Assembly (NCBI GenBank): GCA_964547485.1
Contig: CAZJNU010000006.1
Location: 1,863-65,862, forward strand
Source of the DNA: an uncultured Actinomycetes bacterium
Lineage (GTDB): Bacteria > Actinomycetota > Actinomycetes > S36-B12 > UBA10799
Length of the DNA stretch: 64,000 bases
Reading direction: 5' to 3'
Shown here: positions 18,691-52,732 of the stretch, one piece after another
How positions within the stretch are numbered: position 1 is the first letter of the stretch
Layout of the letters: each line of letters opens with the position of its first letter
The notes under the pieces: generated by a model
What the model was told of the DNA's origin: nothing
What the model saw: only the letters and a program-made list of their open reading frames with translations
Database searches by the model: none
Translations under genes and position numbers: made by a program

Positions 18691-18750
18691 GACAGCAGTA
18701 TGGGCCGTAATCCAGCGTCCCTGCAGTGCAGCCCCGCCGGCCCCATCGCG

Positions 18751-19602: not shown

Positions 19603-19604
19603 GG

Positions 19605-21564: not shown

Positions 21565-21577
21565 GTCCGCGCCCCCT

Positions 21578-27624: not shown

Positions 27625-28060
27625 CTCAAACGAGGCGAAGCTGACCGGCGACAAACTGATCGGTAACGGTCTAACCGACCTTGATCACAAGCTGCACGCA
27701 AACGAGCAATTACGGTCGCGCGTTTCAGGCCTCAATATGGAGGACGGGGTTGTGGGGGAACCGGGCGCCCAATCGCGTGTCCGAAACCTCAAGCGACCGA
27801 AACCCAGCGATGAGACGTTTTCGGGCGGACCCAACTACTGATGACATGTGGCAGTAAAGGGTCGGCCAAATGATGAAACCTGAGGTTTGCACGCGTGCCC
27901 GGCTTCCAAGATCATCGCTAGCGCTAACCGCTGCACGAATCCTCCCCGAACCCCCGACCCCCGACCCCGGACCATACTTCGCGCTGGGGCAGCAGCGGCG
28001 CTGGCTGGTCGACAGTGCGGTGGCTGACCCCTGCGACCGCCACCCCCTAGGATCGGGCAG

Positions 28061-32356: not shown

Positions 32357-33195
32357 TTCCGCCGATAGAGCCGGGAGCGCTGGTCGATCGTGTCCAGTTG
32401 TCGGGCATGCGCCGAACCGCGAGAGGACTCCCGAGAGCCGAGCCCAAGCACGCCGCCTGGGACCAGCGACTCGAACAGAATCTCGTGCACCCGGGCGTGC
32501 AGTTCGGCGTTGAAGTAGATCAGCACATTGCGACACAAAATGAGATCGAACGAATTGAAGCTGGCATCGGATGCGAGGTTGTGCCGGGCGAAAACGATGC
32601 GCTCGCTGAGCGTCCGGTCGAACAGGGGTTCCTCGCCGGTCGACCCGCCGCCGGAGATTGGGAAGTAGTCGGCCAGGGCTGCGGTGCCGCCGCTTGCGAG
32701 GTAGTCATGGTTTCCGGCTGAGATACGGTCCGGAGCGACGAAACCGGCGCGCGCCTGGGCGAGGGACTGCTCGTTGATGTCGGTTGCGTAGATCCGGAAC
32801 CGCTGTGGTGACAACCCGCTCTCGACGAGGGTGATGGCCAACGAGTAGGCCTCCTCGCCGGTGGCCGCACCCGCCACCCAGGCGCGGACCAGGGTGCGGG
32901 AGTCGAAGGCCGGCAGCACGTCCGAACGCAGTGTGGCCCACATGCCTGGATCTCGGAACAGGTGGGTGAAACCCAGGCTCAGGGAGTCGATGACATCATC
33001 GACCAGCAGCGGGTTCTCCCCGACCCGCGCGGCCAACTCTGTGACGCCGCCGTTCATCCGGTGGCGGTCGGCGACGCGCCGGAGTCGCCGGATCACGAAC
33101 GGGCGTTGGTAATTGTTGAAGTCGGCGCCGCGGGTGGCCAGCACGGCAGCCAGCACGTGATCGACCGCGCCGTCGAGTTCAGCGGGTTCGAGCAC
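32350..33195 (-). CDS. cheR: CheR-type protein-glutamate O-methyltransferase
   Basis: THLFRDPGMW, RAWVAGAATGEEAYSLAI, IYATDIN, ILCRNVLIYF. Overlaps the kinase gene end by 17 nt. Confidence 0.85.
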   Translation of the reverse strand: MLEPAELDGAVDHVLAAVLATRGADFNNYQRPFVIRRLRRVADRHRMNGGVTELAARVGENPLLVDDVIDSLSLGFTHLFRDPGMWATLRSDVLPAFDSRTLVRAWVAGAATGEEAYSLAITLVESGLSPQRFRIYATDINEQSLAQARAGFVAPDRISAGNHDYLASGGTAALADYFPISGGGSTGEEPLFDRTLSERIVFARHNLASDASFNSFDLILCRNVLIYFNAELHARVHEILFESLVPGGVLGLGSRESSRGSAHARQLDTIDQRSRLYRRKW

Positions 33196-36775: not shown

Positions 36776-37815
36776 GACTGCCGGCCTTCGCCAGACTCTT
36801 CCGCACCGGAGATGACCAGGCCGGAGCCCGCCTTCTTCGCCTCATACATGGCCCGGTCGGCCGCCGCCAGGATCTGGTCGATCGTGACGTTGTGGGACGC
36901 GAGGTGCAGAGCGAGGCCGACGCTGCCCGGTGCCGCAACGAATCGGCCGTCACTGAGTTGGTAGTCGGCGGCGAGCGCCCCGTGGATCCGCTCGCCCATA
37001 CTTGCGAGGTCGTCGTCATCCTGGATCTCCTGCACGACGACGCAGAACTCGTCACCGCCGAGCCGGGCCACCAGGTCGTACGGTCGCGCGATGCCGCGAA
37101 GTCGGCCTGCAGCCAGCACCAGGACCTCATCACCCGCCGCATGGCCCAGCGTGTCGTTGATCGTCTTGAATCCGTCCAGATCGATCACTGCCACCCCGTG
37201 ATGGCGGCCGGAGCGCTGCTGGTGGGCGCGGACTGCCGCCAGCGAATTCATCAGTTGCCGACGATTCATCAGGGAGGTGAGTGGGTCTGTCGCGGCAAGC
37301 AACTGCAAGTTCGCGTTGGCCTCCGACAATTGCTGTTCAATCGCCCGAAGCCGATCCCGTTGCCGTTCGATTTGCTTCAACTGTTGGGCGAGGGTGCAGA
37401 AGACGTTGACCTTTGACTGCAGAATCTGCGGTACGACCGGCTTCGACAGGTAGTCCACCGCCCCCAGGTCGTACCCGGCCGACATCGCGTCGTCATTGAA
37501 CGCGTACCCGGTGACGAACAGGATGGGTGTCGTTGCCAGTCGAGGATTTGCCCGGACCAGGCCGGCGAGCTCGAACCCCGTCATGTCGCCGAGGTTGACA
37601 TCGAGCAGGATCGCCGCAGGTGTGGTCTTGCGCAGCAGCCGCAGCGCTTCCGTTCCGGATGCGGCGAACACCAGTTCCCGGTCCGGTTCGGCGAGCAGAT
37701 CGCCGATGAGCAGATTGGCGTTGGGATCGTCATCGATCACCATCACCACGACGGGATCGATCGGCTCGGTTGGTGCCTCCGACTCAGCCACCTGTGACCC
37801 TTTCGATCGTGCCAC
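36772..37815 (-). CDS. response regulator with GGDEF diguanylate cyclase output
   Basis: Receiver VVMVIDDDP...LLDVNLGDMTG...KP. GGDEF active site RLGGDEF with an RPYD (RxxD I-site) 5 residues upstream. The stop overlaps the kinase start (ATGA). Confidence 0.9.
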   Translation of the reverse strand: MARSKGSQVAESEAPTEPIDPVVVMVIDDDPNANLLIGDLLAEPDRELVFAASGTEALRLLRKTTPAAILLDVNLGDMTGFELAGLVRANPRLATTPILFVTGYAFNDDAMSAGYDLGAVDYLSKPVVPQILQSKVNVFCTLAQQLKQIERQRDRLRAIEQQLSEANANLQLLAATDPLTSLMNRRQLMNSLAAVRAHQQRSGRHHGVAVIDLDGFKTINDTLGHAAGDEVLVLAAGRLRGIARPYDLVARLGGDEFCVVVQEIQDDDDLASMGERIHGALAADYQLSDGRFVAAPGSVGLALHLASHNVTIDQILAAADRAMYEAKKAGSGLVISGAEESGEGRQS

Positions 37816-37935
37816 GGCAGGCCGTCTGCCCCCGGGCTCGCCGGCGCCGGGATCGGCGTCTCGCTTCGAGTATGGCCGGGAATCAGGTGTGAGTCAGGCT
37901 CGGCGGAAATCTCCCCGATGCCCAGCGGCTTCCGG

Positions 37936-40042: not shown

Positions 40043-40181
40043 GGCGACCTCCTATTGCTGGTCATCCCAGCAGACCATGCCAGCGGCGCCTGCCGACACC
40101 CGGGGGTCGCGGTTGCCCCGGACGCAACGGCGCAGCAGGCCGGTTAGCTGCCGAATTAGTCACAGTCTAGAGTCAATCCCT

Positions 40182-42548
40182 GTGGCAAATAGATCACTGT
40201 TCACACGGGGAAGCTCCAGCGACTGGCCACGAGCAGTTCGACTGCTTCCGTTGGCCGCGGCGATCGCCTCCTACGTCTTGATCGTCTTTGGCAGTCATGT
40301 CCGCGTCAGCGAATCGGGGATGGGGTGCCCCGACTGGCCACTGTGCTACGGCCAGCCAGGGCCAATCCTGGAGTTTCACGCCTTGATGGAACAGGGACAT
40401 CGCTATCTAGCAGCCGTGGTCTCACTGTTGGTGCTGGTAACCGCAGTCCTGGCGTTCTGGTATCGACGTTCACGCCCGGCAGCGGTTCGGCCAGCGATGT
40501 TCACGGTGGTCATGCTGGGTGTTCAGGTACTGCTCGGGGCCGTCACAGTGTTCGCCGGCAATGGGTCGCCGACGGTGGCTCTGCACCTCATCGGGGGCCT
40601 TTCGCTGCTGGCCGGGGCCACGGTCACGGCGCTCTGTGTGTTCCTCCCCAAGGTCCAAGTCGCCGGTGCTCGGCTGCGTCGGCTGGCGTGGGCCGGTGTT
40701 GCGGCAGTGGCACTGCTCGTTACCTCAGGGTCGTTGATCGTCGACGCTGCGGTCGAGGGTCTGTGCCCCAGCATTCCGTTCTGTCCGGCGGGCAGCTCTG
40801 GGGCCGAGACAATGCTGCATGTGGGCCACCGCAGCGTGGCGTTGGTGACCGGGGTGGTGGTCTGGGCGCTCGCGATCCACGCCTGGCGACAGTGGTCCGG
40901 GGTGCGCGGGGCCCGCCCACTGGCGGTCCTTTCCGCGGGCATGATCCTCCTCACCGCCGCAATCGGCGTCACCTCTGCCCTACTGATGGCACCCCCGGAA
41001 TGGGCAGACCTTCACCTGGCAGGTGCCGCTGCGGTGCTGGTGAGCGTCGTGAGTCTGACGACACTCGGCTGGCTGTCGGGGGCAGACGCTGTCGGTGATG
41101 GCACCGGAGGGCGGGGTGACCAAATCGTGGCAGCCTCGCCCGACGACCACCGCCCGGCCACCTCCAGGACCAGGGTTCGCGATGGTGTGCTGGTGTCTGC
41201 GCTCACGGTCGTCCTTGTTGCCATCGGCTACCTCATGGGGGCCCAGCAGGGAGCAGCCAATCCCTCCGATCCCGAGGCCGGGTCCGCCAGCGCTGCCGTG
41301 ACTCCAACCGGTCACACGACCATGGCGGAGGTCACGATCGAGGATATGCGTTTCGTCCCCGATCTGATCGAGGTGCCAGCGGGGGACACACTAGAGATTC
41401 GGCTGGCCAACCACGACGATCGCGACCATGACCTCGTACTGGACTCGGGTCAACGAACGGCCCGGCTGGCCACCGGAAGCACCGAGACCCTCAGCGTCGG
41501 AGTTGTGACGGACCCGATTGAAGGGTGGTGTTCGATTGCTGGCCACCGATGGCTGGGAATGGCACTGAAAGTGGCAGTCATCGGAGGTTCGCCACCCAGT
41601 GATGCCGACTCCGAGGCACCCCACGGTTCCGGATCCCACAAGATGCCGATGGCCACGGCTTCGGGGGATGAGGTTGGTGACCTGGATCTGATGGCCTCGC
41701 CTGAGGCGACTTTTGCCGCGCACAATCCGGCACTCGCGCCGTCCACTCGGCAAGCAGTACACAGGGTCCGGCTTCCGGTGACCCAGCGTGAGTACGAGGT
41801 CGCCCCCGGGGTGCGACAGACACGCTGGACGTTCGCCGGGTCGGCACCGGGGCCGACACTTCGCGGAAGGGTGGGCGACAAATTCGAAATCACACTGATC
41901 AACCGAGGCGACATCGGGCATTCGATCGACTTCCACGCCGGCGCGCTTGCCCCGGATCGTCCAATGCGCACCATCGAGCCCGGACAGGAATTGCGCTACA
42001 ACTTCACCGCCACCAAGGCAGGAATCTGGCTCTACCACTGTTCAACCATGCCAATGTCGATGCATATCGCCAATGGCATGTTCGGTGCGGTGATAATCGA
42101 CCCGCCTGACCTTCCGGAGGTCGACAAGGAGTTTCTGCTGGTGCAATCCGAGTTGTACCTTGGACCGCAAGACGGCACCGCAGACCCGTCCGACATCGCT
42201 TCTGAACACCCTGATCTGGTGGTGTTCAACGGGTACGCCAATCAATATGACCATCGGCCGTTGCAGGTGGGCAGAGGCGAGCGGATCCGCATCTGGGTAC
42301 TGGCAGCCGGACCGAACCGGGGCAGTGCTTTTCACATCGTGGGCGGTCAGTTCGACACGGTCTACGCCGAAGGCAGCTACCTGCTGCGCCCAGGCACTTC
42401 CGTCGGCGGTTCGCAGGTGCTCGGATTGGCCACAGCTCAAGGCGGGTTCGTCGAAACCACCTTGCCCGAACCCGGCAGGTACCCGTTTGTGTCGCACACC
42501 ATGGCCGATGCCGAACGAGGAGCCCACGGGGCGGTGGTGGTCCGATGA
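40182..42548 (+). CDS. fusion protein: COX15/CtaA-like polytopic heme-binding membrane domain, cupredoxin domain, and NirK-like two-domain multicopper nitrite reductase
   Basis: N-terminus GSHVRVSESGMGCPDWPLCYGQ plus repeated His in TM helices (GHRYL, ALHLIGG, HVGHRS, DLHLAG). Middle VTIEDMRFVPDLIEVPAGDTLEIRLANHD. C-terminus GHSIDFHAG and LYHCSTMPMSMHIANGMFGAVIIDP (type 1/type 2 Cu ligand pattern of NirK). The GTG at 40182 avoids overlap with the divergent hydrolase gene. Confidence 0.8.
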   Translation: MANRSLFTRGSSSDWPRAVRLLPLAAAIASYVLIVFGSHVRVSESGMGCPDWPLCYGQPGPILEFHALMEQGHRYLAAVVSLLVLVTAVLAFWYRRSRPAAVRPAMFTVVMLGVQVLLGAVTVFAGNGSPTVALHLIGGLSLLAGATVTALCVFLPKVQVAGARLRRLAWAGVAAVALLVTSGSLIVDAAVEGLCPSIPFCPAGSSGAETMLHVGHRSVALVTGVVVWALAIHAWRQWSGVRGARPLAVLSAGMILLTAAIGVTSALLMAPPEWADLHLAGAAAVLVSVVSLTTLGWLSGADAVGDGTGGRGDQIVAASPDDHRPATSRTRVRDGVLVSALTVVLVAIGYLMGAQQGAANPSDPEAGSASAAVTPTGHTTMAEVTIEDMRFVPDLIEVPAGDTLEIRLANHDDRDHDLVLDSGQRTARLATGSTETLSVGVVTDPIEGWCSIAGHRWLGMALKVAVIGGSPPSDADSEAPHGSGSHKMPMATASGDEVGDLDLMASPEATFAAHNPALAPSTRQAVHRVRLPVTQREYEVAPGVRQTRWTFAGSAPGPTLRGRVGDKFEITLINRGDIGHSIDFHAGALAPDRPMRTIEPGQELRYNFTATKAGIWLYHCSTMPMSMHIANGMFGAVIIDPPDLPEVDKEFLLVQSELYLGPQDGTADPSDIASEHPDLVVFNGYANQYDHRPLQVGRGERIRIWVLAAGPNRGSAFHIVGGQFDTVYAEGSYLLRPGTSVGGSQVLGLATAQGGFVETTLPEPGRYPFVSHTMADAERGAHGAVVVR

Positions 42549-44011
42549 GACGGGGCTCCACGACTGTCGAGACCGTGGGGGTGATCGGTGCCGGCGTCGC
42601 GGGCCTCGCCGCGGCTGGGGTGCTGGCTCGGCAGGGATTCAAGGTCGAGGTCTTCGAAGCAAATGACAAAATCGGCGGTTGCTGCTCGACGACCGAAATC
42701 GGGGGCTTCACGTTCAATGACGGCGCCCTGTACCTGGCTTTGCCAGCCCTGCTTGACCGCACTTTCGAGGCGGTTGGGTTGGATCGGCGATCTGCTCTTC
42801 CGCTGCGACGGATCACGGCGCCACAAACCACTGTCCTGCCCACTGGTGATCGCGTCACCTTCGGTGATGGTCGACGTATCACGGTTCAGCGAGCTCGAGG
42901 AACGATCGACGAGCTACTGCTGGAGCGTGAACTTGACCGAATGATGTCGCGCTGGGAACCAGCATTGCGCCTGCTCACTGATGAGATCCTGGCCGAGCCG
43001 CTCTCCCTCCCGCGCGCCCTGGCCAAAGGGTGGCGGCAGTTGCCCAAGTTTCGCGGGACAGTGGCCGCCGAGCTGAATCGTCTTTTCAGCGACGACGCCG
43101 TTCGGGCGGCGATGTCAGGAGTCCTGTTGTACACCGGAATCCCCCCACAGCAGCAACCCGTCATCTCCATCCTTGGTCTTGTCACGTTGTTCAGCGACGG
43201 CTTTCATCTGCCGGAGGGTGGCATGGGACAAGTGCCCAAGGCCTTAGGTGACGCCGTCCGCATCGGCGGGGGGAAGATTCACCTCAACAGCCGAATCGAC
43301 CGGATTGCCGTCAGCGGAGATCGTGTCCGAGGCCTGCGCCTTCGAGGTCAGGAACTGGTCGAACTGGATGCAGTCGTCTCCACCGCCAGTGGAATGTTGA
43401 CGTTCGGCTCGTTGCTGAGCCCGACGGATTCGCCCCGAAGGTTGGCGCGCAAGGCCGAACGGGCGCAACTTTCGCATAGCGCGTTTTCGGTCCAACTTGG
43501 TCTGCGGAACAAGATCAACACACCCAGTCACTCGAATTGCCAGTTGCCGTTGATGGAGCGGCAAGGCGACGTTTTCAGCCCGTGCGACGACGGCGTGAAG
43601 TGGCTTGTCTACGACACGCCGACGGTGACCCTGCCGGAATTGTCGCTCACGGGCGGCAGCATCATCGAGATGTACCCGCCGGTGCAGCGGGGTCTCCCCA
43701 TCGATGACTGGACCGATTCGCGCGACGCCCACATTGTCGACAAAGCCTTGGAAGCACTGTCACGAGTCCACGATCTGGATGTCGCCGTGACCCGGGTAAC
43801 CAGTCCGAAGGGCTTTCAGGACAGACTCAATCTGTATCGCGGGGCGGTGTACGGATTGTCCCCGCAGGTCGCACCGTGGAACCATTTTCCCCACCGCACT
43901 GCTATCCGGGGCTTGTATCAGAGCGGCCAGACAACGTACCCGGGATATAGCGTCGGACGATCAGCCATCTCTGGCGTCCTGGCCGCCGAAGCACTTATAC
44001 AGGACCAGTGA
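42545..44011 (+). CDS. FAD/NAD(P)-binding oxidoreductase (phytoene-desaturase/CrtI-like family)
   Basis: VGVIGAGVAGLAAAGVLARQGFKVEVFEANDKIGG dinucleotide-binding motif. The start overlaps the stop of the NirK fusion gene (ATGA). Confidence 0.8.
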   Translation: MRRGSTTVETVGVIGAGVAGLAAAGVLARQGFKVEVFEANDKIGGCCSTTEIGGFTFNDGALYLALPALLDRTFEAVGLDRRSALPLRRITAPQTTVLPTGDRVTFGDGRRITVQRARGTIDELLLERELDRMMSRWEPALRLLTDEILAEPLSLPRALAKGWRQLPKFRGTVAAELNRLFSDDAVRAAMSGVLLYTGIPPQQQPVISILGLVTLFSDGFHLPEGGMGQVPKALGDAVRIGGGKIHLNSRIDRIAVSGDRVRGLRLRGQELVELDAVVSTASGMLTFGSLLSPTDSPRRLARKAERAQLSHSAFSVQLGLRNKINTPSHSNCQLPLMERQGDVFSPCDDGVKWLVYDTPTVTLPELSLTGGSIIEMYPPVQRGLPIDDWTDSRDAHIVDKALEALSRVHDLDVAVTRVTSPKGFQDRLNLYRGAVYGLSPQVAPWNHFPHRTAIRGLYQSGQTTYPGYSVGRSAISGVLAAEALIQDQ

Positions 44012-44057
44012 CACCCGGCGCCGACCCTGCGGACTCACCCTGCAGCAGGGCAACCGG

Positions 44058-44696
44058 CTACCGCCGCGGCGCCCAAAGCGGGTAAGGCAAACCTGCGAGG
44101 CGGTTGATCGCCAGCCCTTCCAGGATCATCAGCACCACCGCGATCATCAGGATCAGCAACTGCTCCGGGGTCCGCATCAGGCCGAGGGCCACGATCAGGG
44201 TCGTCGCGCCTGCCGGCGCGTGCGGCACCCCCAGCCAGACCATGAACGACAGGGTCAGGCACAGTGCGACGGTGGCAGCCCCCACCCGAGGCCAGGTGAC
44301 ATCCTCGAGGTCCGGTGCCACCGTCGTCAGTCCAAAGATGAGTAGAGCCAGAAAGCCCGCGACCACCCCGATCAGATGCCCGCAGAAGACGTTGCGAGGG
44401 GCCGCCTGATCACCGAGCGCGGCGAAGAAGAGCAGGAATGCGGTGGGCCCGAGTGACGGGAACACGAAAGGCTGGTCGGTTACCGCCGCGATGCTGGAGA
44501 GCACGGCGATGGAGATTGCGGAGTTGATCAGAACATAGGCGCCGAGTACGATCCGGTTGTTGTGCCGCGTTTGCAGCCCCTTGAGGCCGAACCGGGTGGC
44601 CAGTCCGTGTACCTGTGCTGGCAGGTCGCCGTAGGGTCCTCGAGGTTCGCCGCCAGCTACTCCGGACGCCTCGATCCGAGCCTGCTCATTCGTCAT
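44058..44696 (-). CDS. HPP-family integral membrane protein
   Basis: Polytopic, with FPSLGPTAFLLF and VPHAPAGATTLIVALG (HPP-like motif). Lies 25 nt downstream of narI on the same strand. Confidence 0.68.
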   Translation of the reverse strand: MTNEQARIEASGVAGGEPRGPYGDLPAQVHGLATRFGLKGLQTRHNNRIVLGAYVLINSAISIAVLSSIAAVTDQPFVFPSLGPTAFLLFFAALGDQAAPRNVFCGHLIGVVAGFLALLIFGLTTVAPDLEDVTWPRVGAATVALCLTLSFMVWLGVPHAPAGATTLIVALGLMRTPEQLLILMIAVVLMILEGLAINRLAGLPYPLWAPRR

Positions 44697-44721
44697 CGGT
44701 GATCCTTTCGCTGCGGCGGAA

Positions 44722-45474
44722 TCAGTCTCGACCGATCGTCTGCCAACGCCGGGACGTTCCCGGATTGGGGATGTGAGCAGCTGCCCTGCTCCGGTAGACG
44801 ATGTACGGCCGGGTCAGATAGAACACGGGGGCACTGAAGGCGTGCACCAACCGCCCCCAGGGGAAGAGCGCGAAGAAGAGCCAGGCGATGGTCACGTGGA
44901 CCTGATAGATCGTCGGCGCACCGACCATCAGCGAAGGGTCCGGCTGAAGGTAGAACAGGCTGCGGAACCATTCACCGACCGTCGGACGGTAGTTGTAGCC
45001 GGGACCGAAGATGTTGTAGCCCACGGTCTCGGCCATTCCCAGCAGGATCATGATCCACAGGATTATGAAGGTCATCAGGTCGGTCCAGGTGGTGGCGCTG
45101 CGCACTCGGGGATTGTGGAGTCGGCGCGCGGTGAGTATCGCCAGCCCGGCCACGCACAGCACCACCGCGAATCCGCCCGCATACTTCGACACGGAGGCGT
45201 ATAGGGATTCGTTGATACCGAAGAACTCAGTCCAGGATTCGGGTATCAAGATGCCGAGCACATGCCCGGCGATTGCCAGCAGCGCGCCGTAGTGGAACAT
45301 CATCGCGCCGATGATGAGCCACTTCTTTTCATACAGTTCCGAGGACCGGCTGCCCCATCCGTACTTGTCGAACCGATATCGCCACACCAGCCCGACGACG
45401 AAAACGGAAATCCCGATGTAGGGCAGGATTCCGAAGAGCAACCAGTCCCAGGTGCTTGCGGTGGAATCGGTCAT
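44722..45474 (-). CDS. narI: respiratory nitrate reductase gamma subunit
   Basis: WDWLLFGILPYIGISVFVVGLVWRYRFDKYGW...MMFHYGALLAIAGHVLG, 250 aa. Confidence 0.93.
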   Translation of the reverse strand: MTDSTASTWDWLLFGILPYIGISVFVVGLVWRYRFDKYGWGSRSSELYEKKWLIIGAMMFHYGALLAIAGHVLGILIPESWTEFFGINESLYASVSKYAGGFAVVLCVAGLAILTARRLHNPRVRSATTWTDLMTFIILWIMILLGMAETVGYNIFGPGYNYRPTVGEWFRSLFYLQPDPSLMVGAPTIYQVHVTIAWLFFALFPWGRLVHAFSAPVFYLTRPYIVYRSRAAAHIPNPGTSRRWQTIGRD

Positions 45475-46130
45475 CTGCGGGCCCCGCTCACGCTGGCGTT
45501 CTCAATCTGGTACACGTCCAACCCAACCGACTCCTCGGGCGGGCCCTCAGCGGCCAGCGACACCACTGCGGCAAGATCGGCGTCGTCGAGTCGGGGTAGC
45601 ACGGCGAGTACGGCAGCGATCAACGGCGCGAAAGGGTCGTCGAAATCGGCCAGGGAGCGACGCAACAGTTCCAATGACCGCCGATGTGATCCCAGCAACC
45701 GGATCCCGCGGGGTTCGTCGGCCGCGAACTCCAACAGCAGCGGAAGGTAGTCCGGGAGTTCCCCGCTGCTGATGTCGTAACCGTGTCGTAGGAGTACATG
45801 TTTGATCTGCAGGAGCGCGGCCCCCCGATTGCGGGTATCGCCATGAGTGAGGTACGTCAGATGCAGGGGAGTTCTGCGTCGGAAGTCGAACGCGGCGACG
45901 TAACGTTGTTCGCGCTCGTCGGCGGGTAGTGCGACCCACCAAACCGTAAATGATGTAAGGGCATCGGCGGCGCCCCCGGCAGGCAATTGCCGTGACCGAA
46001 CAATCAGATCGGGGTAGAGCGCGACCGTGTCCGGCGTCGGGTAATCCAGCAAGACCGAAACGATCGACAACAGCGTGGATGTTCCCGCCGGGTCGAGTGA
46101 TCGCCGGGAGGACCTGCGCAGGATGCTCAT
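45471..46130 (-). CDS. narJ: nitrate reductase molybdenum cofactor assembly chaperone
   Basis: Position between narH and narI. The ATG at 46130 overlaps the narH stop. LLDYPTPD...YVAAFDFRRRTPLHLTY pattern. Confidence 0.85.
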   Translation of the reverse strand: MSILRRSSRRSLDPAGTSTLLSIVSVLLDYPTPDTVALYPDLIVRSRQLPAGGAADALTSFTVWWVALPADEREQRYVAAFDFRRRTPLHLTYLTHGDTRNRGAALLQIKHVLLRHGYDISSGELPDYLPLLLEFAADEPRGIRLLGSHRRSLELLRRSLADFDDPFAPLIAAVLAVLPRLDDADLAAVVSLAAEGPPEESVGLDVYQIENASVSGARR

Positions 46131-47767
46131 AACGCACCTGCCTGACCGAACGGGTTGCCCGTGGTCAGCTCGCCGTTCCACCCGAGCAGGTTGAACCGTT
46201 TGTTGCCGTCCCCGTCGACAAAGATGCTGCCACTGCCGTCTGTCGCCGGGATTCCTCCGGAACCCAACCCGCGAAACTCTGCGCCCTGACCCTGCCCGAC
46301 GAGTGCTTCGGCGACTCCGGGGCCGCCAGGGAAGTCCAGGCTGCAGTGCTGCGTCTGCAGTGCACCGGCGTCCTCGCGGTGAGCGGTCGGGATGACGTAT
46401 CGGTCTCGGTACTCGCCCACCGCCAGCAGTCGGAACAACTTCTCAACGTCATCGTCATCGAATCCGACGGCAGCGAGGAGGTCGTCGGGCACATCCTCAC
46501 CGAACTGCATGGCCCGCTTGACTGCCCGCAGCACCGTAAGTCTCCGCAGAGCGTCGCGCACCGGAGCCGCATTTCCGGCCGAGAAGATCGAAGCGAGGTA
46601 GTCGATGGGAATTCGCAGATTCTCGATCCCCGCCAGCACCTTCTGGGTGTCGTCGGCATCGAAACCGGCATCGGCGGCATTATCGGCCATTGGAGCAAGC
46701 GGAGGGACGTACCAGACCATCGGCATCGTGCGGAACTCGGGATGCAGCGGAAGCGCCACCCGCAAATCCTTGGCCAAAGCGTAAACCGGTGAGTTCTGAG
46801 CCGCCTGCAACCAGTCGAACGGCACGCCACTGCGCTCTGCGGCACGGAGGACCTCTGGGTCGCGCGGATCCAACATTACGCGTCGATGGGCCTCGACGAG
46901 GTCGTGCGCCTCAGGGGTCTGGGCCGCGGCCGTCACCGCGTCCACGTCATACAGGACCACGCCGATGTAACGGATACGGCCGACGCAGGTCTCCGAACAA
47001 ATGGTTGGCTGACCATCCTCGATCCGGGGGTAGCAGAACGTGCACTTCTCGGCCTTGCCGCTGACGTGGTTGAAGTAGACCTTCTTGTAGGGGCAGCCCG
47101 ACACGCACATCCGCCAGCCGCGACAGGCATTCTGATCGACCAGCACGATCCCGTCCTCGACGCGTTTGTACATGGCGCCCGAGGGGCAGGAGGCGACACA
47201 TGCCGGGTTAAGGCAGTGGTTGCAGATCCGGGGGAGGTAGAACATGAACACTTGCTCATACTCAAGCTGCGCCTGCTGTCCCAGGGAGGCTGCGTTCGGG
47301 TCCTGCTGGAAGCGCTCGTTGGTGCCGGCGAGGTTGTCATCCCAGTTGGGTCCCCAGGTGAGCTTCAACGGCTCTCCGGTCAACCGGGATCGGGATTGGA
47401 CGACGGGGGAGTGTTCCTGCAGCGGAGCACTGACCAGGTTGGCGTATTCGTAGGTCCACGGCTCATAGTAGTCGTCGATTTGAGGCAGGTCGGGATTGCC
47501 GAAGATGCTGAGCAGTTTGCGGATTCGGCCGCCGGCCTTGAGTTTGAGTCGGCCCTTGCCGTCCAGGGCCCAGCCGCCCTTCCAGTGTTCGTTGTCCTCC
47601 CACCGCTTGGGATAGCCGACCCCAGGTTTGGTCTCAACGTTGTTGAACCACACGTAGTCGGTACCCGAACGGTTGGTCCATGCTTGTTTGCAGGTGACGC
47701 TGCAGGTGTGGCACCCGATGCATTTGTCCAGCGCCATCACCATCATCAGTTGCGCCCGCACCCGCAT
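46127..47767 (-). CDS. narH: respiratory nitrate reductase beta subunit
   Basis: MALDKCIGCHTCSVTCK and further Fe-S Cys clusters, 546 aa. Confidence 0.97.
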   Translation of the reverse strand: MRVRAQLMMVMALDKCIGCHTCSVTCKQAWTNRSGTDYVWFNNVETKPGVGYPKRWEDNEHWKGGWALDGKGRLKLKAGGRIRKLLSIFGNPDLPQIDDYYEPWTYEYANLVSAPLQEHSPVVQSRSRLTGEPLKLTWGPNWDDNLAGTNERFQQDPNAASLGQQAQLEYEQVFMFYLPRICNHCLNPACVASCPSGAMYKRVEDGIVLVDQNACRGWRMCVSGCPYKKVYFNHVSGKAEKCTFCYPRIEDGQPTICSETCVGRIRYIGVVLYDVDAVTAAAQTPEAHDLVEAHRRVMLDPRDPEVLRAAERSGVPFDWLQAAQNSPVYALAKDLRVALPLHPEFRTMPMVWYVPPLAPMADNAADAGFDADDTQKVLAGIENLRIPIDYLASIFSAGNAAPVRDALRRLTVLRAVKRAMQFGEDVPDDLLAAVGFDDDDVEKLFRLLAVGEYRDRYVIPTAHREDAGALQTQHCSLDFPGGPGVAEALVGQGQGAEFRGLGSGGIPATDGSGSIFVDGDGNKRFNLLGWNGELTTGNPFGQAGAL

Positions 47768-50700
47768 CAGTACTGCACCTCCTGCGACCGCCGCCGCAGC
47801 ACCGCAACCTCATCGCGTTGAGATCCTGTGCAGCCGTAGTAGTTGAAGCCGTAGGACAACTGGCCATAACCACCGATCATGTGAGTGGGTTTGAGCAATG
47901 CCCGGGTCAGACTGTTCTCGGTACCGCCCCGTCGACCAGTGCGTTCGGTCAGCGGCGTTTGCACCTGTCTGTCCTTGGCGTGATAGACGTACACCAAACC
48001 CTTCGGCATCCGCGGAGACACTGCGGCCACACCGTCGATCACGCCGTTGCGATTCCACACCTCGGCCCACTCCCCGTCTCGTAGCCCGATCTCGGCCGCA
48101 TCCTCGACACTGACCCAGACTGTCGGCCCGCCCCGGAACAGGGTGAGCATCAATAGATCGTCCTGGTATTCGGAGTGGATACTCCACTTACTGTGCGGAG
48201 TTAAGTACCGCACCGCAATACTGCCCTCGTCGAGGTCGTGCACCTGTGAGTACTTCGCCATCATGTTCAGCGGTGGTCGGTAGATCGGCAGCATCTCCCC
48301 GTACTCCTTCATCCACTCGTGGTCCAAGAAGAACGAGATCCTGCCCGTCAACGTGCGCCAGGGCAGCGCCTTGGCCACGTTGACGGCGTAACCCGTGTAT
48401 GCCTTTTGCGCTGATACGTCACCGGTCCAATCGGGCGAGTTGATGACCTGTTGCGGGCGTTGGCTGACATCGTCCCAAGTGATCCGAATGTCGCTTTGCC
48501 CTGCCACCAGGTCGGTCAGGTCCAACCCGGAAACCGACTCGGCATCGCGCCAGAGGTCCAGCGCGACCGCACCGTTGGTGGCACCGGAGAGCGCCAGCAT
48601 TGCCTCCGCGCAGTGTTGATCCGTCGTCAACTGCGGTCGTCCCGCCGCTGGCCCGGTAGCCACGGTGCCGTTCTTCTCTGCCAGCCAGGCGACCTGTTCG
48701 GTCGGGACGCTGTGGTAATCCTTGGCCGTCACACCGGCGGTCTCGACCCTGGGTCCGAGGGCTTGCCACTTGGCATGCACCGCTGCGTAGTCGCGTTCAA
48801 CGACTACCAGCTTCGGCGCATTCACACCAGGGATCGGCCGACTACCGCTGACGCGCCAGTCATCCACCCGTCCGTGCGGAACGGACAGTTCGCCGGCGGA
48901 GTCATGCGCGATGGACACGGCGACGATGTCTTGGCGAACCCCCAGGTGCTTGGCCGCCAGCTCACTGAATGACTCCGCGATCGCGCTGAAAGCGTCCCAA
49001 TCGCTGCGTGATTCCCAGGGCGGGTCGATCGCCTTGTTGAACGAGTGCACGAACGGATGCAGATCGGTACACGATAGGTCGAACTTCTCGTACCAGGTCG
49101 CCGCCGGGAATACGACGTCGGCGAAGTTGGCGGTACTGGTCATCCGGAAGTCAAAGTTGACCAGCAGGTCGAGTTTTCCGATGGGCGCCTGATCTCGCCA
49201 GATGACCTCCTGCGGCCGACGATCCGGCTCGGTCTCGCTGGCGTCCGCGTTCGCGGCGCCTCCCAACAGGTGACGGATGAAGAACTCATGACCCTTACCC
49301 GAGCCGCCAAGGATATTGCTGCGCCACACCATCAACAGCCGCGGAAAGTTCACCGGGTCATCTGGATCCTCGACGCTGAACCGCAACGAACCGTCCGCCA
49401 GCCGATCGACGACATGTTCGGCTGGTTCCTTGCCTAGCGCCCTGGCTTCGTCCGCTAGATCGAGGGGGTTCGCCGCAAAGGTGGGGTAGGTCACCTGCCA
49501 ACCAAGTCGAACAGCCACGTTGAGGCAGTCCATGAAGGATCGCCCTTCGAACCTGCCATCACCCAGGGGAGAGGCGAGGTCGTCGGCTTGCCACACCTCG
49601 TAGCGCCACTGGTCGGTTGCCGTGTAGTAGTACGCCGTGCCGTTGCACTGTCGCGGCGGCGCGCTCCAGTCCAAGGCGTGCGAGAGGGTCACCCAGCCGC
49701 CGAAGGGTCGGATGGCCTCTTGCCCCACATAGTGGTTCATGCCGCCGCCATTGCGTCCGACGGTTCCGCAGGTAATCAGCAACGTCAGGATCGATCGGTA
49801 CACGGTGTCGGAGTTGAACCAATGGTTGATGCCGGCGCCCATGATGGCCATAGCCCGACCCTCGGTCTTCTCCGCCGCGGTGGCGAATTCCCGCGCGATC
49901 CTGATGCACAGCGCTGCATCGATCCCGGTGATGTCCTCCTGCCAAGCTGGCGTATACGGTTCGGTTGCGTCCTCGTAGCCCGTGGGCCAAGTACCTGGCA
50001 TATCCGGGCGTTCGACACCGTAGTGAGCGAGCATGAGATCGAACACAGTGGTCACCGGAACGCCGTCGACGTCGATCACGGGGACGCCGCGCCGCACTAC
50101 CCCGGCCGGTTCCTGGTCGAAGCGCGGGAAGAGTACCTCCGCCGTTCCGGTGCCGTGCTTCGCCATGCTCATCGCGGGCACAAGATCGTCGAGCCGAAGG
50201 TTCCAGGTGCCCCGATCCGAGTCGGCGTACTTGGCTGCCATAACACCGGGCGGACTGACGATCGTCGCAGTCGCTTCGTCGAAGATGACCGGTCGGAAGG
50301 CGGCCAGTTCAGGTTGCTCGCCCAAATCGGACACCGTCATCATCCGATCTGGCACGTACCCGCCCCTGGGGCTCTCTGCCAGCCGCACGAGAAACGGCAG
50401 ATCTGTGAAGGTGCGGCAGTACTCAGTGAAATAGGGCGACTGCCGGTCGACGTGGAACTCCTTCAGGACCACGTGCCCCATGGCCATGGCCAGAGCGCCG
50501 TCACTTCCCGGTGCCACCGGCAGCCAATGGTCGGCGAACTTCGCATGCTCGGCGTAATCCGGGGCAACCACCACCACCTTCTCTCCGTGGTAGCGGGATT
50601 CGGCAAGGAAGTGCGCATCAGGTGTTCGCGTCACGGGCACGTTGGAGCCCCAGACGAGCACGTACGACGAATTCCACCAGTCCCGAGCTTCGGCAACATC

Positions 50701-51438
50701 GGTTTGTTCGCCGAAGGTCTGCGGGCTGGCCGGAGGAAGGTCCGCGTACCAGTCGTAGAACGAAACGTGCGCACCACCTGTGAGGGCCATGTAGCGCGAA
50801 CCGGACGCGTAGGACACAGGTGACATGGCCGGCAGGGGGGTGAACGCTGCGGCCCGATCGGGGCCATGGACTTTGATCGTGTGGACATGGGCGGCGGCGG
50901 TGATCTGCACCGCCTCGTGATACGTCGCCCGCATCAGCCCACCCCGGCCGCGCTCGCCCTTGTAGCGGGCTACCAACTCGGTATCCGCCTGGATGGCTGA
51001 CCATCGTTCGACCGGATCGGGGTGACTGTCCGCCATCGAGCGCCAGGACCGCAGCAGCGCGCCGCGAACGTAGGGGAAGCGCACTCGCGCTGGGCTATAG
51101 ACGTACCAAGAAAAGGAAGCCCCCCGAGGGCAGCCGCGCGGCTCATGGTCGGGGACCCCAGGTGGGGTCTGCGGATAGTCGGTCTGCTGCGTCTCCCAGG
51201 AAATGATTCCATCGCGGACGTACACCTTCCATGAACAGGAACCAGTGCAGTTCACGCCGTGCGTGGACCGGACCTCCTTGTCATGGCGCCATCGGTCGCG
51301 ATAGAACTCTTCCCACGAGCTGGGGTCCTCCCGGTCGACGCTTCGTGCGTCGGAACTGACCGTTCCCTTGGTCAGGTGGCGCAGTCCCGGCGGCATCAGC
51401 GGGTCGGCGCCGTGCGCCTGCGAGCGGGGTCCGGACAT
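47767..51438 (-). CDS. narG: respiratory nitrate reductase alpha subunit
   Basis: HGVNCTGSCSWKVYVRDGIISWETQQTDYP N-terminal Fe-S motif, 1223 aa. Confidence 0.97.
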   Translation of the reverse strand: MSGPRSQAHGADPLMPPGLRHLTKGTVSSDARSVDREDPSSWEEFYRDRWRHDKEVRSTHGVNCTGSCSWKVYVRDGIISWETQQTDYPQTPPGVPDHEPRGCPRGASFSWYVYSPARVRFPYVRGALLRSWRSMADSHPDPVERWSAIQADTELVARYKGERGRGGLMRATYHEAVQITAAAHVHTIKVHGPDRAAAFTPLPAMSPVSYASGSRYMALTGGAHVSFYDWYADLPPASPQTFGEQTDVAEARDWWNSSYVLVWGSNVPVTRTPDAHFLAESRYHGEKVVVVAPDYAEHAKFADHWLPVAPGSDGALAMAMGHVVLKEFHVDRQSPYFTEYCRTFTDLPFLVRLAESPRGGYVPDRMMTVSDLGEQPELAAFRPVIFDEATATIVSPPGVMAAKYADSDRGTWNLRLDDLVPAMSMAKHGTGTAEVLFPRFDQEPAGVVRRGVPVIDVDGVPVTTVFDLMLAHYGVERPDMPGTWPTGYEDATEPYTPAWQEDITGIDAALCIRIAREFATAAEKTEGRAMAIMGAGINHWFNSDTVYRSILTLLITCGTVGRNGGGMNHYVGQEAIRPFGGWVTLSHALDWSAPPRQCNGTAYYYTATDQWRYEVWQADDLASPLGDGRFEGRSFMDCLNVAVRLGWQVTYPTFAANPLDLADEARALGKEPAEHVVDRLADGSLRFSVEDPDDPVNFPRLLMVWRSNILGGSGKGHEFFIRHLLGGAANADASETEPDRRPQEVIWRDQAPIGKLDLLVNFDFRMTSTANFADVVFPAATWYEKFDLSCTDLHPFVHSFNKAIDPPWESRSDWDAFSAIAESFSELAAKHLGVRQDIVAVSIAHDSAGELSVPHGRVDDWRVSGSRPIPGVNAPKLVVVERDYAAVHAKWQALGPRVETAGVTAKDYHSVPTEQVAWLAEKNGTVATGPAAGRPQLTTDQHCAEAMLALSGATNGAVALDLWRDAESVSGLDLTDLVAGQSDIRITWDDVSQRPQQVINSPDWTGDVSAQKAYTGYAVNVAKALPWRTLTGRISFFLDHEWMKEYGEMLPIYRPPLNMMAKYSQVHDLDEGSIAVRYLTPHSKWSIHSEYQDDLLMLTLFRGGPTVWVSVEDAAEIGLRDGEWAEVWNRNGVIDGVAAVSPRMPKGLVYVYHAKDRQVQTPLTERTGRRGGTENSLTRALLKPTHMIGGYGQLSYGFNYYGCTGSQRDEVAVLRRRSQEVQY

Positions 51439-51547
51439 GCAGTCCTCCTGGGGAAAGGCACCTGGGCGCCGATCGGGACTCGATCGCCCTCAGCGGGCCG
51501 CGACGCCGCGGAACTTGGACATCGTAGCCATTTATTACACTTGTGTC

Positions 51548-52732
51548 GTGAATAATGTGCCCGATTCGGATCAGGCCTACGATTGGACCCCAACGGACGC
51601 CGGAGAAGACCCGCTCCGGAACTACGAAGCGTTGCGGGAGCGGTGCCCGGTGGCGCATAGTGAAGCCCAAGGTTGGTCATTGCTGAGGCATGCCGATGCA
51701 CTCGCGGCCTTGCACGACCCGGCGACGTTTAGCTCACAGGTGTCGACCCACGTGGCTGTCCCCAACGGGATGGATGGGGCGGAACACGCAGCGTTCCGGG
51801 CGATCGTCGACCGGTGCTTCACCCCGGAGCGAGTGGCGGCATTCGCTCCGCAGTTGCGAGGAATCGCCCAATCGCTGGTGGCGGACCTGCCTGGGACTGC
51901 TGGCCTGACCGTTGAGGTGATGGATGGGCTGGCAGAGCCCTACGCGGCCCGTGCCCAGTGCGCGTACTTGGGCTGGTCGACGAGTGTCGCCGAGGATTTG
52001 CGGGCGTGGGCCATCGAATCGCGGTTGGCGACCCGGAGTCGGGACCGCGACGAGCTCGACCGAGTAGCCCGCAGATTCGACCACATCATCGTCGCGGAAC
52101 TCGACCGGGCTCGTGCTCAGAGCGCTGCCACGCCGCCGTCGTTGACCCACCAGCTATTGGCTGAACGAGTGAACGGTCGACCGCTGACCGACGAGGAACT
52201 GGTCAGTATCGTTCGGAATTGGACCGCGGGGGAGTTGGGCACGATCTCGGCCGCTGTCGGCATCACGGTGGCATTCCTGGCTCGTCACCGCGACGTGCAG
52301 GACATGCTGCGCGCCCAGCCGAATCTGCGGCAGGCGGCCATTGATGAGATGCTGCGACTGGAACCACCGCTCTTGTCCAACCGGCGGCGGACCACCCGAA
52401 CCGCGCTGGTCGCGGGCCGGTCCATCCCCGCAGAAGAGCCTGTGACGATCCTGTGGCCGGCGGTGCAGCACGACCCGACCGTATTTCCCGAGCCGAGTGA
52501 GTTCCGGCCTGATCGTGACGCAGCCCACAATCTGCTCTACGGCCGTGGTGTGCACTACTGCCCAGGGGAGGGCCTGGCGAGGCTGGAACTCGAGATTGCG
52601 CTGGACACCCTACTTATGCAGCGGCCCGGGTTCCGGGTGGCTGCCGCGCCGGTCCGGGCGATCCCGCCCGCTGGCGGGTTCGCCGAGGTGCAAGTCACGT
52701 GGGTACCGTCCCAGCGCAACCCCAATTCATAG
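51548..52732 (+). CDS. cytochrome P450
   Basis: ExxR (EMLRLEPP) and heme loop YGRGVHYCPGEGLA. The start was chosen downstream of the divergent narG start and is uncertain (51545-51557). Confidence 0.85.
   Translation: MNNVPDSDQAYDWTPTDAGEDPLRNYEALRERCPVAHSEAQGWSLLRHADALAALHDPATFSSQVSTHVAVPNGMDGAEHAAFRAIVDRCFTPERVAAFAPQLRGIAQSLVADLPGTAGLTVEVMDGLAEPYAARAQCAYLGWSTSVAEDLRAWAIESRLATRSRDRDELDRVARRFDHIIVAELDRARAQSAATPPSLTHQLLAERVNGRPLTDEELVSIVRNWTAGELGTISAAVGITVAFLARHRDVQDMLRAQPNLRQAAIDEMLRLEPPLLSNRRRTTRTALVAGRSIPAEEPVTILWPAVQHDPTVFPEPSEFRPDRDAAHNLLYGRGVHYCPGEGLARLELEIALDTLLMQRPGFRVAAAPVRAIPPAGGFAEVQVTWVPSQRNPNS

Follow-up and report, generated by a model that had tools for sequence, protein, structure and literature searches.

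The 64-kb window analysed here, that is, the whole stretch of DNA under study, comes from an uncultured high-GC actinobacterium and contains a compact locus that is best explained as a nitrate to nitrite to NO module; in its full form, which includes a cytochrome P450 acting on NO or on NO- or nitrite-derived species, this explanation is given a probability of about 0.55. The original prediction was of a compact cluster within 40182-52732 that comprises a NirK fusion, an FAD oxidoreductase, an HPP-family protein, narGHJI and a divergently transcribed P450, and each of the eight genes was found where predicted. The finer points of the layout hold as well. The ATG of the FAD oxidoreductase overlaps the TGA of the NirK fusion as ATGA (42545-42548), the ATG of the HPP gene lies 25 nt past the narI stop, and the P450 gene diverges from narG across 109 bp. 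The features of the locus are as follows.

40154-40175, forward strand: conserved 22-nt element AATTAGTCACAGTCTAGAGTCA, shortly before the start of the NirK fusion
40182-42548, forward strand, GTG start: NirK fusion, 788 aa (Pfam COX15-CtaA, Cupredoxin_1, Cu-oxidase_3)
42545-44011, forward strand: CrtI-like FAD oxidoreductase, 488 aa (Pfam Amino_oxidase, NAD_binding_8)
44058-44696, reverse strand: HPP-family membrane protein, 212 aa (Pfam TM_HPP PF04982, 74.9 > 27.2)
44722-45474, reverse strand: narI, nitrate reductase gamma subunit (TIGR00351, 200; cut-off 105.6)
45471-46130, reverse strand: narJ, nitrate reductase chaperone (TIGR00684, 82; cut-off 59)
46127-47767, reverse strand: narH, nitrate reductase beta subunit (TIGR01660, 714; cut-off 524)
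47767-51438, reverse strand: narG, nitrate reductase alpha subunit (TIGR01580, 1499.6; cut-off 1084)
51439-51547: divergent narG/P450 control region, 109 bp (alignment with L001)
51548-52732, forward strand, GTG start: cytochrome P450, 394 aa (Pfam p450 PF00067, 85.8; cut-off 22.8)

Related loci keep this layout to varying degrees. The whole cluster is conserved in L001-3, with a P450 identity of 78%, while L091 has the gene order fusion-FADox-HPP-narIJHG at a fusion identity of 69% and carries DUF2249, radical-SAM and cupin genes upstream of the cluster. In L098, where P450 identity is only 54%, the order is HPP-narIJHG / P450-FADox; L094 has the same narG/P450 pair.

All four subunits of NarGHJI score above their NCBIfam equivalog cut-offs, and the genes overlap or abut. 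The start of narJ has been revised to the ATG at 46130, which gives an ATGA overlap with the narH stop and agrees with the 219-aa products of its relatives; a longer, 236-aa ORF was rejected, its start lying too far upstream. As family membership and motifs show, NarGHJI reduces nitrate on the cytoplasmic side of the membrane. The operon resembles the narGHJI-narK operons of Actinobacteria and Proteobacteria in its four canonical, translationally coupled nar genes, but here there is no narK in 64 kb and narI is followed by the HPP gene; relatives of the P450 come after narK in Burkholderiaceae and Actinotalea. The absence of a NarK-type gene, which had been predicted, was confirmed within the 64-kb window by tblastn (with an Actinotalea NarK-like MFS query) and Pfam. 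NorB-like, NnrS, cd1, DUF2249, Rrf2 and Crp/Fnr queries likewise gave zero tblastn matches within the window, and Pfam scans of its remaining ORFs agree with these absences.

The HPP gene is the last of the nar operon, and the gap that separates it from narI holds an AAAGGA Shine-Dalgarno-like site. Cyanobacterial and plastid members of this family have been linked to the transport of nitrite (Maeda et al. 2014, in the form in which PMC7438415 cites it), a Kuenenia HPP gene is induced under nitrite limitation (PMC7438415), and an HPP gene of M. smegmatis is bound by GlnR (PMC3662644). The protein encoded here is, like the cyanobacterial and plastid transporters, a small multi-pass Pfam HPP protein, and its gene sits in a nitrate/nitrite operon; however, the cyanobacterial and plastid setting is assimilatory, whereas here it is respiratory, the carrier is putative, and the motif reads HAPAGAT, with HAP in place of HPP. 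Three related lineages (L001, L091 and L098) retain the pairing of narI with HPP, and L086 encodes an HPP protein of 78% identity beside a NirK operon; two more distant HPP genes have no nar or NirK-type context at either locus. Taken together, the earlier proposal of a nitrite (or nitrate/nitrite) carrier is reasonable, and the odds that this protein carries nitrite are judged to be about even. It would move nitrite, or swap nitrate for nitrite, in place of the missing NarK.

An NCBI protein of equal length matches the NirK fusion at 100% identity. Its domains follow the order CtaA/COX15-like 8-TM domain, ninth TM helix, cupredoxin and copper nitrite reductase core. The core finds its best match in HdNIR of Hyphomicrobium denitrificans (PDB 2DV6, 6e-50), and the T1Cu and T2Cu ligands as well as the catalytic Asp and His align with those of 2DV6 (motifs HSIDFH, YHCSTMPMSMHIANGM, FHIVGG and VSHTM), which places it among the NirK proteins. 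The TIGR02376 equivalog score of 164 falls below the cut-off of 296, as is expected of so divergent a clade. HdNIR, the best solved relative, shares the cupredoxin-plus-NirK order and the copper ligands; it is a three-domain protein with an N-terminal cupredoxin, whereas here an additional 9-TM CtaA/COX15-like anchor precedes the cupredoxin. The anchor scores 109 bits against PF02628 (cut-off 29.9), and the hydropathy profile shows nine TM segments; four conserved His residues lie in TM2, 4, 6 and 8, and there is a GCPDWPLC loop. Judged by sequence, the first eight helices belong to the heme A synthase (CtaA/COX15) fold, an assignment of fold membership only. This architecture is rare, being confined to six protein clusters; most actinobacterial NirK relatives are ~870 aa long and have another polytopic N-terminal half without a Pfam match. 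The ninth helix would place the cupredoxin and NirK domains outside the cell, and the CtaA-like domain may bind heme b, such that electrons would pass from menaquinol via the cupredoxin to NirK. That the anchor feeds quinol electrons to NirK is a tentative proposal, somewhat more doubtful than not.

The 22-nt element AATTAGTCACAGTCTAGAGTCA is identical in L091 although the fusion protein there is only 69% identical, and TAGAGT lies 8 nt before the GTG of the fusion; the element is a candidate operator and -10 region with a putative regulatory role. The coupled FAD oxidoreductase gives a full-length match to CrtI (4DGK, 6e-23) and remains below the cut-off of the CrtI family model (TIGR02734 crtI_fam, 168.9 vs 238.1); it is CrtI-like and probably not a carotenoid desaturase. 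Three lineages have its gene beside the NirK fusion, and a fourth has it beside the P450; it follows the fusion in L001 and L091 and the P450 in L098. The flavoprotein may serve as an accessory redox protein of the module.

The P450 equals in length a 97%-identical database protein and belongs to the P450 superfamily, as seen from PF00067, the Cys loop YGRGVHYCPG and the EXXR motif EMLR. It represents a large family, so far uncharacterised, that is marked by the signature RNWT[AV]GE[LV]GT and in which 39 positions are invariant among 71 sequences; these include C338, E267 and R270 and the basic residues R223, R279 and R280. The AlphaFold model has a pLDDT of 90.4. In the I-helix sequence AGELGT, the canonical acid before Thr is absent in both alignment registers: BLAST and hhalign equate T232 with T243 and G231 with A242 of P450nor (GELGT vs GNAT), and HMMER sets AGELGT against AGNETT, one residue over. 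The control region contains AT-rich conserved blocks, CCATTTATTACA (51528-51539) and CGTGAATAATGTG (51547-51559, with the GTG start inside it). A distance of 6 nt separates this GTG from a preceding -10-like hexamer, TACACT, which suggests that the P450 mRNA is leaderless. A search for upstream motifs turned up neither a shared FNR/Dnr box nor any other common element.

The original prediction also pointed to P450nor (CYP55), CYP105 and TxtE-type enzymes, and kinship with these beyond the superfamily is not borne out. CYP families are conventionally set at ~40% identity or more. The P450 is 25% identical to CYP55A1 (70 bits; reference sequence verified 403/403 against PDB 1EHE), which rules out membership of CYP55, and a score of 56.1 against a cut-off of 500 (TIGR04458) rules out a TxtE-type nitrating enzyme. 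P450nor matches the CYP105s at ~1e-78, whereas this P450 does so at ~1e-29, as for any other P450, and P450nor is absent from its top 60 PDB sequence hits and top 50 Foldseek structural hits. Opposite the NADH-binding B' region of P450nor, the hhalign alignment has a gap of ~14 residues, and residues 63-77 of the model are non-helical and of low confidence.

What the two enzymes have in common lies elsewhere. Fungal P450nor (CYP55A1) and the protein described here are both soluble heme-thiolate P450s whose gene or activity is associated with a copper nitrite reductase; a redox-partner gene is missing from the surroundings of either, and, with GELGT set against GNAT as in the BLAST and hhalign register, both are without the canonical I-helix acid before Thr. 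Across the family, no ferredoxin or reductase family occurs among the families seen at least twice in 144 immediate P450 neighbours. Fungal P450nor is an NADH-dependent NO reductase and differs in the low identity and in the B' region, which is shortened and non-helical here, and the NO role of the protein described here is putative. Putative P450 NO reductases outside CYP55 have been proposed in the ammonia-oxidising archaeon Nitrosocosmicus solely from expression and context (Jung et al. 2019, PMC6775971). Both these and the present P450 are prokaryotic proteins outside CYP55 put forward, putatively, for NO to N2O conversion; the evidence in Nitrosocosmicus is low-pH induction in one organism, whereas here it is the gene neighbourhood across many bacteria.

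This neighbourhood was surveyed with a strict set of markers (NarG, NirK, cd1 (NirS), NorB-like, NnrS, DUF2249 and HPP) and a distance limit of 10 kb. At least one marker lies within that distance of the P450 gene in 29/80 GTDB species-representative genomes and in 2/3 further contigs, counts that are not phylogenetically independent (about ten loci are from Halomonas) and that stand beside a background rate of proximity estimated by reasoning only. Metagenome loci replicate the association, with 14/80 marker-positive overall and 11/38 among loci of at least 8 kb. Markers can be very close: DUF2249 lies <100 bp from the P450 gene in four loci and NnrS at ~120-140 bp in two, and most hits to either are <3 kb away. 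At least eight different gene arrangements from several phyla are involved. Halomonas has nirS...nirJ-nirE-nirN-nnrS-(U32)-P450; Burkholderiaceae plasmids of cultured strains have NnrS-narGHJI-narK-P450-PAS, flanked by Rrf2, hemerythrin and DUF2249; Actinobacteria have NirK-c61 / HTH_20-P450-DUF2249, Actinotalea has narG-MFS-HTH_20-P450, and in Rhizobium NirK is 521 bp from the P450. The family occurs in nar/nir/nor/nnrS loci of Actinomycetota, Alpha-, Beta- and Gammaproteobacteria and one Chloroflexota MAG, and in cultured Paraburkholderia fungorum, Caballeronia, Halomonas, Georgenia and Actinotalea. DUF2249 is itself tied to denitrification, through DrpA and DrpB of Thermus, which are proposed nitrate sensors (PMC6282519), and Haloferax genes that are induced under denitrifying conditions (PMC11218638).

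Because proximity to nitrogen-oxide genes recurs across arrangements and phyla, a functional tie of the P450 to nitrogen-oxide metabolism is likely, and the cross-phyla context gives this part of the original prediction strong independent support. Its genes recur as accessories in loci for nitrate respiration, denitrification and NO stress. Alternatively, the P450 could be a class I monooxygenase of the usual O2-dependent kind for a xenobiotic, lipid or secondary metabolite, brought next to narG by chance or on shared mobile islands. Its best sequence and structure matches are indeed generic hydroxylases (EryK, Vdh, CYP109 and CYP125), ~60-70% of family loci have no strict marker within 10 kb and instead unrelated housekeeping neighbours such as alaS, ruvX and greA-like genes, and L005, whose P450 is 62% identical, lacks nar and nir genes in its vicinity; the GC content of the cluster, slightly below that of its flanks, is compatible with an acquired island. 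Against this, the eight or more arrangements span several phyla, markers crowd close to the P450 gene, the acid-alcohol pair that O2-activating P450s typically have is non-canonical here, and the divergent narG/P450 pair survives at 54% P450 identity in L098 despite other rearrangements, and we consider the ordinary monooxygenase unlikely.

A role in anoxic or hypoxic adaptation, in which the P450 would act on a cofactor, quinone, tetrapyrrole or sulfur amino-acid metabolite and share low-O2 regulation with denitrification, would account for the U32 peptidase-family neighbours in 7 loci, NirJ-like radical-SAM genes in 9, Cys/Met PLP enzymes in 9 and MetE in 2, and for the siroheme and sulfite-reductase genes near the P450 in Deinococcus. 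This is quite improbable, given that the O2 or peroxide normally required by a P450 fits poorly with strictly anoxic biosynthesis, and that the closest and most frequent partners (DUF2249, NnrS, Rrf2 and hemerythrin) are NO-linked rather than biosynthetic. Very unlikely is a non-catalytic heme-thiolate sensor or buffer of NO or redox state that works with an adjacent ArsR-type HTH_20 regulator and DUF2249. HTH_20-P450-DUF2249 strings in five actinobacterial loci (L006, L011, L069, L138 and L150), the PAS protein after the P450 in Burkholderiaceae and the nitrate-sensor proposal for Thermus DUF2249 proteins (PMC6282519) speak for such a device; yet HTH_20 and DUF2249 are both missing from the window and its closest relatives, and the family strongly conserves the complete catalytic scaffold of a P450.

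In the preferred reading, that of an NO-acting enzyme, the P450 is a cytoplasmic heme-thiolate protein that would act on cytoplasmic NO or on NO- or nitrite-derived species. The foremost specific guess is that it removes NO reductively, as P450nor does, although a P450 that makes N2O as an NO reductase is, taken by itself, rather unlikely. Many Actinobacteria that carry NirK are not known to encode an NO reductase. In Halomonas the P450 family occurs beside NorB-like genes, so that the P450 need not serve as the sole NO sink in that genus; this co-occurrence in Proteobacteria also means that it is not simply a Nor replacement. A joint scheme would make the family an evolutionarily independent, bacterial NO-transforming heme-thiolate enzyme, serving as the missing cytoplasmic sink in NirK Actinobacteria without a heme-copper Nor and as an auxiliary sink in many proteobacterial denitrifiers, and the CtaA-like:cupredoxin:NirK fusion a self-contained menaquinol:nitrite oxidoreductase; as a whole it is an unlikely combination.

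A search of the literature found no paper that describes the CtaA-like NirK anchor or the P450 family feature. The rare anchor, if the proposal is true, would represent a new wiring of nitrite reduction to the quinone pool. Should the P450 be an ordinary hydroxylase, the locus would simply be a nar-nirK island with an HPP carrier. The P450 family provides a concrete, clonable NO-handling candidate that is available in cultured strains. If it turns over NO, P450-based NO chemistry would have arisen a second time, independently, and the family would supply a new marker gene for inventories of N2O sources.

The window is a segment of actinobacterial chromosome with a GC content of 65%, and it includes aroC-aroK-aroB-aroQ-pepQ-efp-nusB, dprE1/dprE2/ubiA, polA, rbpA and lnt/ppm1. 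The genes that the original prediction had named at 40182-52732, together with their coupling and spacing, are confirmed by ORF calls and by Pfam and NCBIfam matches, the start of narJ being the sole correction to the earlier gene description.

Features of the island at 40182-52732.
40182 (GTG) to 42548: NirK fusion, 788 aa, identical to database protein P0241
42545-44011: CrtI-like FAD oxidoreductase, start within the NirK stop codon (ATGA overlap)
Strand opposite to the NirK fusion: narG, narH, narJ (start 46130) and narI, translationally coupled
25 nt after narI: HPP-family membrane protein gene, with a Shine-Dalgarno-like AAAGGA
51548 (GTG start): cytochrome P450, 109 bp from the narG ATG

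NarG, NarH, NarJ and NarI all score above their NCBIfam equivalog cut-offs. The claim that no NarK-type gene is present is borne out within 64 kb, since Pfam scans and tblastn found no MFS/NarK, NorB-like, NnrS, cd1, DUF2249, Rrf2 or Crp/Fnr genes in the window. Over the NirK-FAD oxidoreductase-HPP-nar genes (42000-50000) the GC content falls to 0.62-0.635, with flanks at 0.65-0.69, which is compatible with horizontal gain of the island. Adjoining it on the minus strand (32350-37893) are genes for a CheR methyltransferase, a 1220-aa hybrid sensor kinase (HAMP-GAF-HisKA-HATPase with three receiver domains) and a receiver-GGDEF protein, a possible signalling input to the island. Nitrogen-related but away from the island are an ANTAR response regulator, an amino-acid-binding protein and a MIP-family channel (12418-15722), encoded upstream of a Liv-type ABC transporter (18751-22924). 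Elsewhere in the window, two large Ser/Thr/Ala/Gly-rich ORFs (6495-8366, 623 aa; 8768-10498, 576 aa), which have hydrophobic segments at the N-terminus and match nothing in Pfam, may encode secreted or pilus-associated proteins, and small ORFs at 15800-17857, 18373-18750 and 27214-27841 resemble toxin-antitoxin systems of the YoeB/YefM, AbrB/MazE and PIN/VapC types, as judged by eye from their translations.

The gene set and its order are unchanged in the aquatic metagenome loci L001-3, where the P450 and NarG are 78% and 96% identical to those of the window. In a wastewater contig (L091) with a fusion 69% identical, genes for a cupin, a radical SAM protein, DUF2249, an MJ1278-like protein and a 185-aa protein precede the fusion, followed by the FAD oxidoreductase (split), HPP, narI, narJ, narH and, at the contig end, narG. 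A further metagenome locus, L098 (P450 54%, NarG 78%, HPP 72% and FAD oxidoreductase 73% identical), carries HPP-narIJHG divergent from P450-FAD oxidoreductase, so that the divergent narG/P450 pair is retained despite the deep divergence of the P450. Here (region 7595-9634) the flavoprotein gene lies directly behind the P450 rather than the NirK fusion; its move from one to the other indicates that it is a component of the module, perhaps acting with the P450 in addition to NirK. The L098 order thus hints at a redox partner of the P450.

In L086, an HPP 78% identical to that of the window is found next to a NirK operon of the ordinary actinobacterial type, which includes genes for DUF2249, a radical-SAM protein and a cupin. 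At two loci with homologues 75% and 71% identical, the HPP neighbours include no nitrogen-oxide genes. PMC7438415 describes nitrite transport by HPP proteins in cyanobacteria and plastids, and HPP induction in Kuenenia when nitrite is limiting; in M. smegmatis an HPP gene is bound by GlnR (PMC3662644).

Among solved structures, the NirK core is closest to the three-domain nitrite reductase from Hyphomicrobium denitrificans (2DV6, 6e-50), and the alignment of the two reveals that both sets of copper ligands (T1Cu, T2Cu) are retained, as are the catalytic Asp and His. Pfam COX15-CtaA matches the N-terminal half of the fusion with 109 bits. Hydropathy analysis resolves eight helices, with His residues in TM2, 4, 6 and 8 and an outer loop GCPDWPLC, and then a ninth helix; heme A synthases share both the four His positions and the outer loop. 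By the positive-inside rule the N-terminus would be inside, and nine helices would therefore place the cupredoxin and NirK outside, the usual working site of copper nitrite reductases. We infer from these sequence features that the CtaA-like domain could be a heme-b anchor relaying quinol electrons to the cupredoxin and NirK. The architecture, with its CtaA-like N-terminal half (window 40182-41500), is rare, being confined to six 90%-identity protein clusters. More than 100 actinobacterial relatives of about 870 aa, including those of Mycolicibacterium, Pseudonocardia, Georgenia, Streptomyces and Nocardioides, have another polytopic N-terminal half without a Pfam match; in most cases an unannotated protein, c61, of about 381 aa precedes it. 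No description of a CtaA-NirK fusion was found in the literature, the coverage of which was incomplete, so that an earlier description is possible.

Just upstream of the fusion GTG, a 22-nt element, AATTAGTCACAGTCTAGAGTCA, is identical in the window (40154-40175) and in L091 (~3857-3878), the fusions themselves being 69% identical. It holds three AGTC repeats and a -10-like hexamer, TAGAGT, and could thus be an operator at a leaderless promoter; the GTG starts at 40182 and 51548 are both presumed leaderless. A sigma-70 promoter and terminator scan of the cluster gave no signal, with no promoter returned and terminators less numerous than in shuffled sequence, and comparison of the nirK upstream and narG/P450 regions yielded no convincing common words. 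Among 89 regions upstream of family P450s, FNR/Dnr-like boxes occur in five, an uninformative figure against ~1.9 expected, and no inverted repeat recurs across taxa.

The P450 belongs to a large family. Among the candidates scored, 395 database clusters reach E <= 1e-20, and species-representative genomes and metagenome contigs contain at least 578 and at least 495 relatives, respectively. Its members, 45-78% identical to the window P450, occur in Actinomycetota and in Alpha-, Beta- and Gammaproteobacteria, and also in MAGs of Chloroflexota, Planctomycetota, Acidobacteriota and Verrucomicrobiota. Two copies share a single locus, some of them in tandem, in several Proteobacteria (Advenella, Halomonas, Alcaligenaceae; loci L028, L029, L036, L052, L054, L065 and L073). 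In 71 family sequences 39 positions are invariant, among them R223-N224-W225, G228-E229, T232, R279-R280, several Trp and the Cys loop; RNWT[AV]GE[LV]GT and PNGMDxxEH serve as signatures of the family. The I-helix reads AGELGT in place of the usual AGx(E/D)TT, the acid residue before Thr being missing in both alignment registers, and the stretch from FSS to MDPPEH is ~8-14 residues shorter than in P450cam or in P450nor, the fungal NO reductase CYP55A1; in the AlphaFold model it forms no B' helix.

The original prediction had proposed placing the P450 against the CYP55 (P450nor), CYP105 and TxtE-type clades, and the sequence, profile and model comparisons all speak against kinship with these. 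With the NCBIfam TxtE model the P450 scores 56, the cut-off being 500, and neither BLAST in pairs, comparison of profiles, searches of PDB sequences nor Foldseek supported kinship with P450nor or CYP105. CYP55A1 (the query being 403/403 identical to PDB 1EHE) has CYP105s as its own nearest relatives (~1e-78), and matches the window P450 at 25% identity and 70 bits. The closest solved match of the window P450 is EryK/CYP113A1 (1e-33), and the family profile best matches CYP125, CYP107 and CYP109, all generic class I enzymes. An AlphaFold model from 71 family members (pLDDT 90.4, pTM 0.91) retrieves EryK, Vdh and CYP109 on top in Foldseek (TM ~0.82), with P450nor absent from the top 50 matches.

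ORFs were called in 83 P450 loci, and neighbours were clustered, the recurrent clusters being named by Pfam.

Recurrent neighbours of the P450 in 83 loci.
NnrS: 13
NirJ-like radical SAM: 9
Cys/Met PLP enzyme: 9
cd1 NirS/F/N: 8
NirDLGH: 7
NirE: 7
HTHP heme protein: 7
U32: 7
NorB-like COX1: 6
NarGHI: 5-6
DUF2249: 5
Crp/Fnr: 5
Rrf2: 5

With a strict marker set located by tblastn (NarG, NirK, cd1, NorB-like, NnrS, DUF2249, HPP), at least one marker lies within 10 kb of the P450 in 29/80 GTDB loci and two of three other contigs, many loci being well under 20 kb and about 10 of the loci being Halomonas, hence not independent counts. Random expectation, estimated by reasoning, is ~1-3% for a gene in a 4-6 Mb genome with a few such loci. 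A metagenome set replicates the result (14/80 loci positive; 11/38 among those of at least 8 kb). Markers cluster close to the P450, with DUF2249 at 60-92 bp (four loci) and NnrS at 115-139 bp (two loci); DUF2249 proteins have been experimentally tied to denitrification (PMC6282519, PMC11218638). Arrangements include nirS...nirN-nnrS-(U32)-P450 and MarR-P450 beside nirS in Halomonas, narG-MFS-HTH_20-P450 in Actinotalea, Rrf2-P450-NnrS in Ensifer, and NirK 521 bp from the P450 in Rhizobium. Plasmids of cultured Burkholderiaceae carry NnrS-narGHJI-PPIase-narK-P450-PAS amid Rrf2, hemerythrin and DUF2249 genes, and in Actinobacteria NirK-c61 / HTH_20-P450-DUF2249 is found, or NirK convergent with the P450 at 53 bp. 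An ArsR-type HTH_20 regulator and DUF2249 flank the P450 in many Actinobacteria (L006, L011, L069, L138, L150, L095), and neither is present in the window or in its closest relative L001.

Housekeeping genes are the neighbours at most family loci, and L005, with a P450 62% identical, has no nitrogen-oxide gene nearby. The P450 has no fixed operon partner, DUF2249, NnrS, U32 and MarR topping a Pfam census at only 3-4 each of 144 immediate neighbours, which are heterogeneous. Methionine, cysteine and sulfur genes recur near some P450s, including MetE (L045, L074) and cystathionine-synthase-like PLP enzymes (nine loci), as do siroheme/sulfite reductase genes in L175 (Deinococcus).

On balance, we give a probability of roughly 0.6 to a functional tie between the P450 and nitrogen-oxide metabolism. 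In the pathway proposed for the island, nitrate would enter the cytoplasm, where NarGHI would reduce it, nitrite would be exported through HPP, the outward-facing cupredoxin-NirK, drawing electrons from its own CtaA-like heme anchor, would convert nitrite to NO, and NO diffusing back into the cell would be met by the cytoplasmic P450. That the P450 is an NO reductase producing N2O is a tentative suggestion, with the odds well against it. A self-sufficient, P450nor-like reductive mechanism would fit the NirK context, the missing acid residue of the I-helix and the lack of ferredoxins or reductases among the families seen in at least two of the 144 immediate neighbours; however, the P450 has no homology to CYP55, its B' region is shortened, and NorB-like genes co-occur with it in Proteobacteria.

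The AGELGT motif and the shortened B' region depart from standard O2-activating P450s, and the chemistry may be unusual, though these features do not specify it. An ordinary monooxygenase is one reading among several, and we hold it to be unlikely. A hypoxia-related biosynthetic role is more doubtful still, and a function as sensor or buffer is improbable.

NarGHJI and NirK are canonical, and the HPP in narK's place, the CtaA-like NirK anchor and a non-CYP55 P450 in denitrification loci are variations on known themes. A literature search found no paper that links the P450 family to NnrS, NsrR or nir genes, which is weak evidence given thin coverage of subscription journals; the nearest precedent is the proposal of putative P450 NO reductases for archaea (PMC6775971). 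The context signal of the P450 is broad, and could not have been predicted from the window alone. How NO is removed in NirK-bearing actinobacteria that lack Nor is a standing question, and it is now directly testable in cultured strains.
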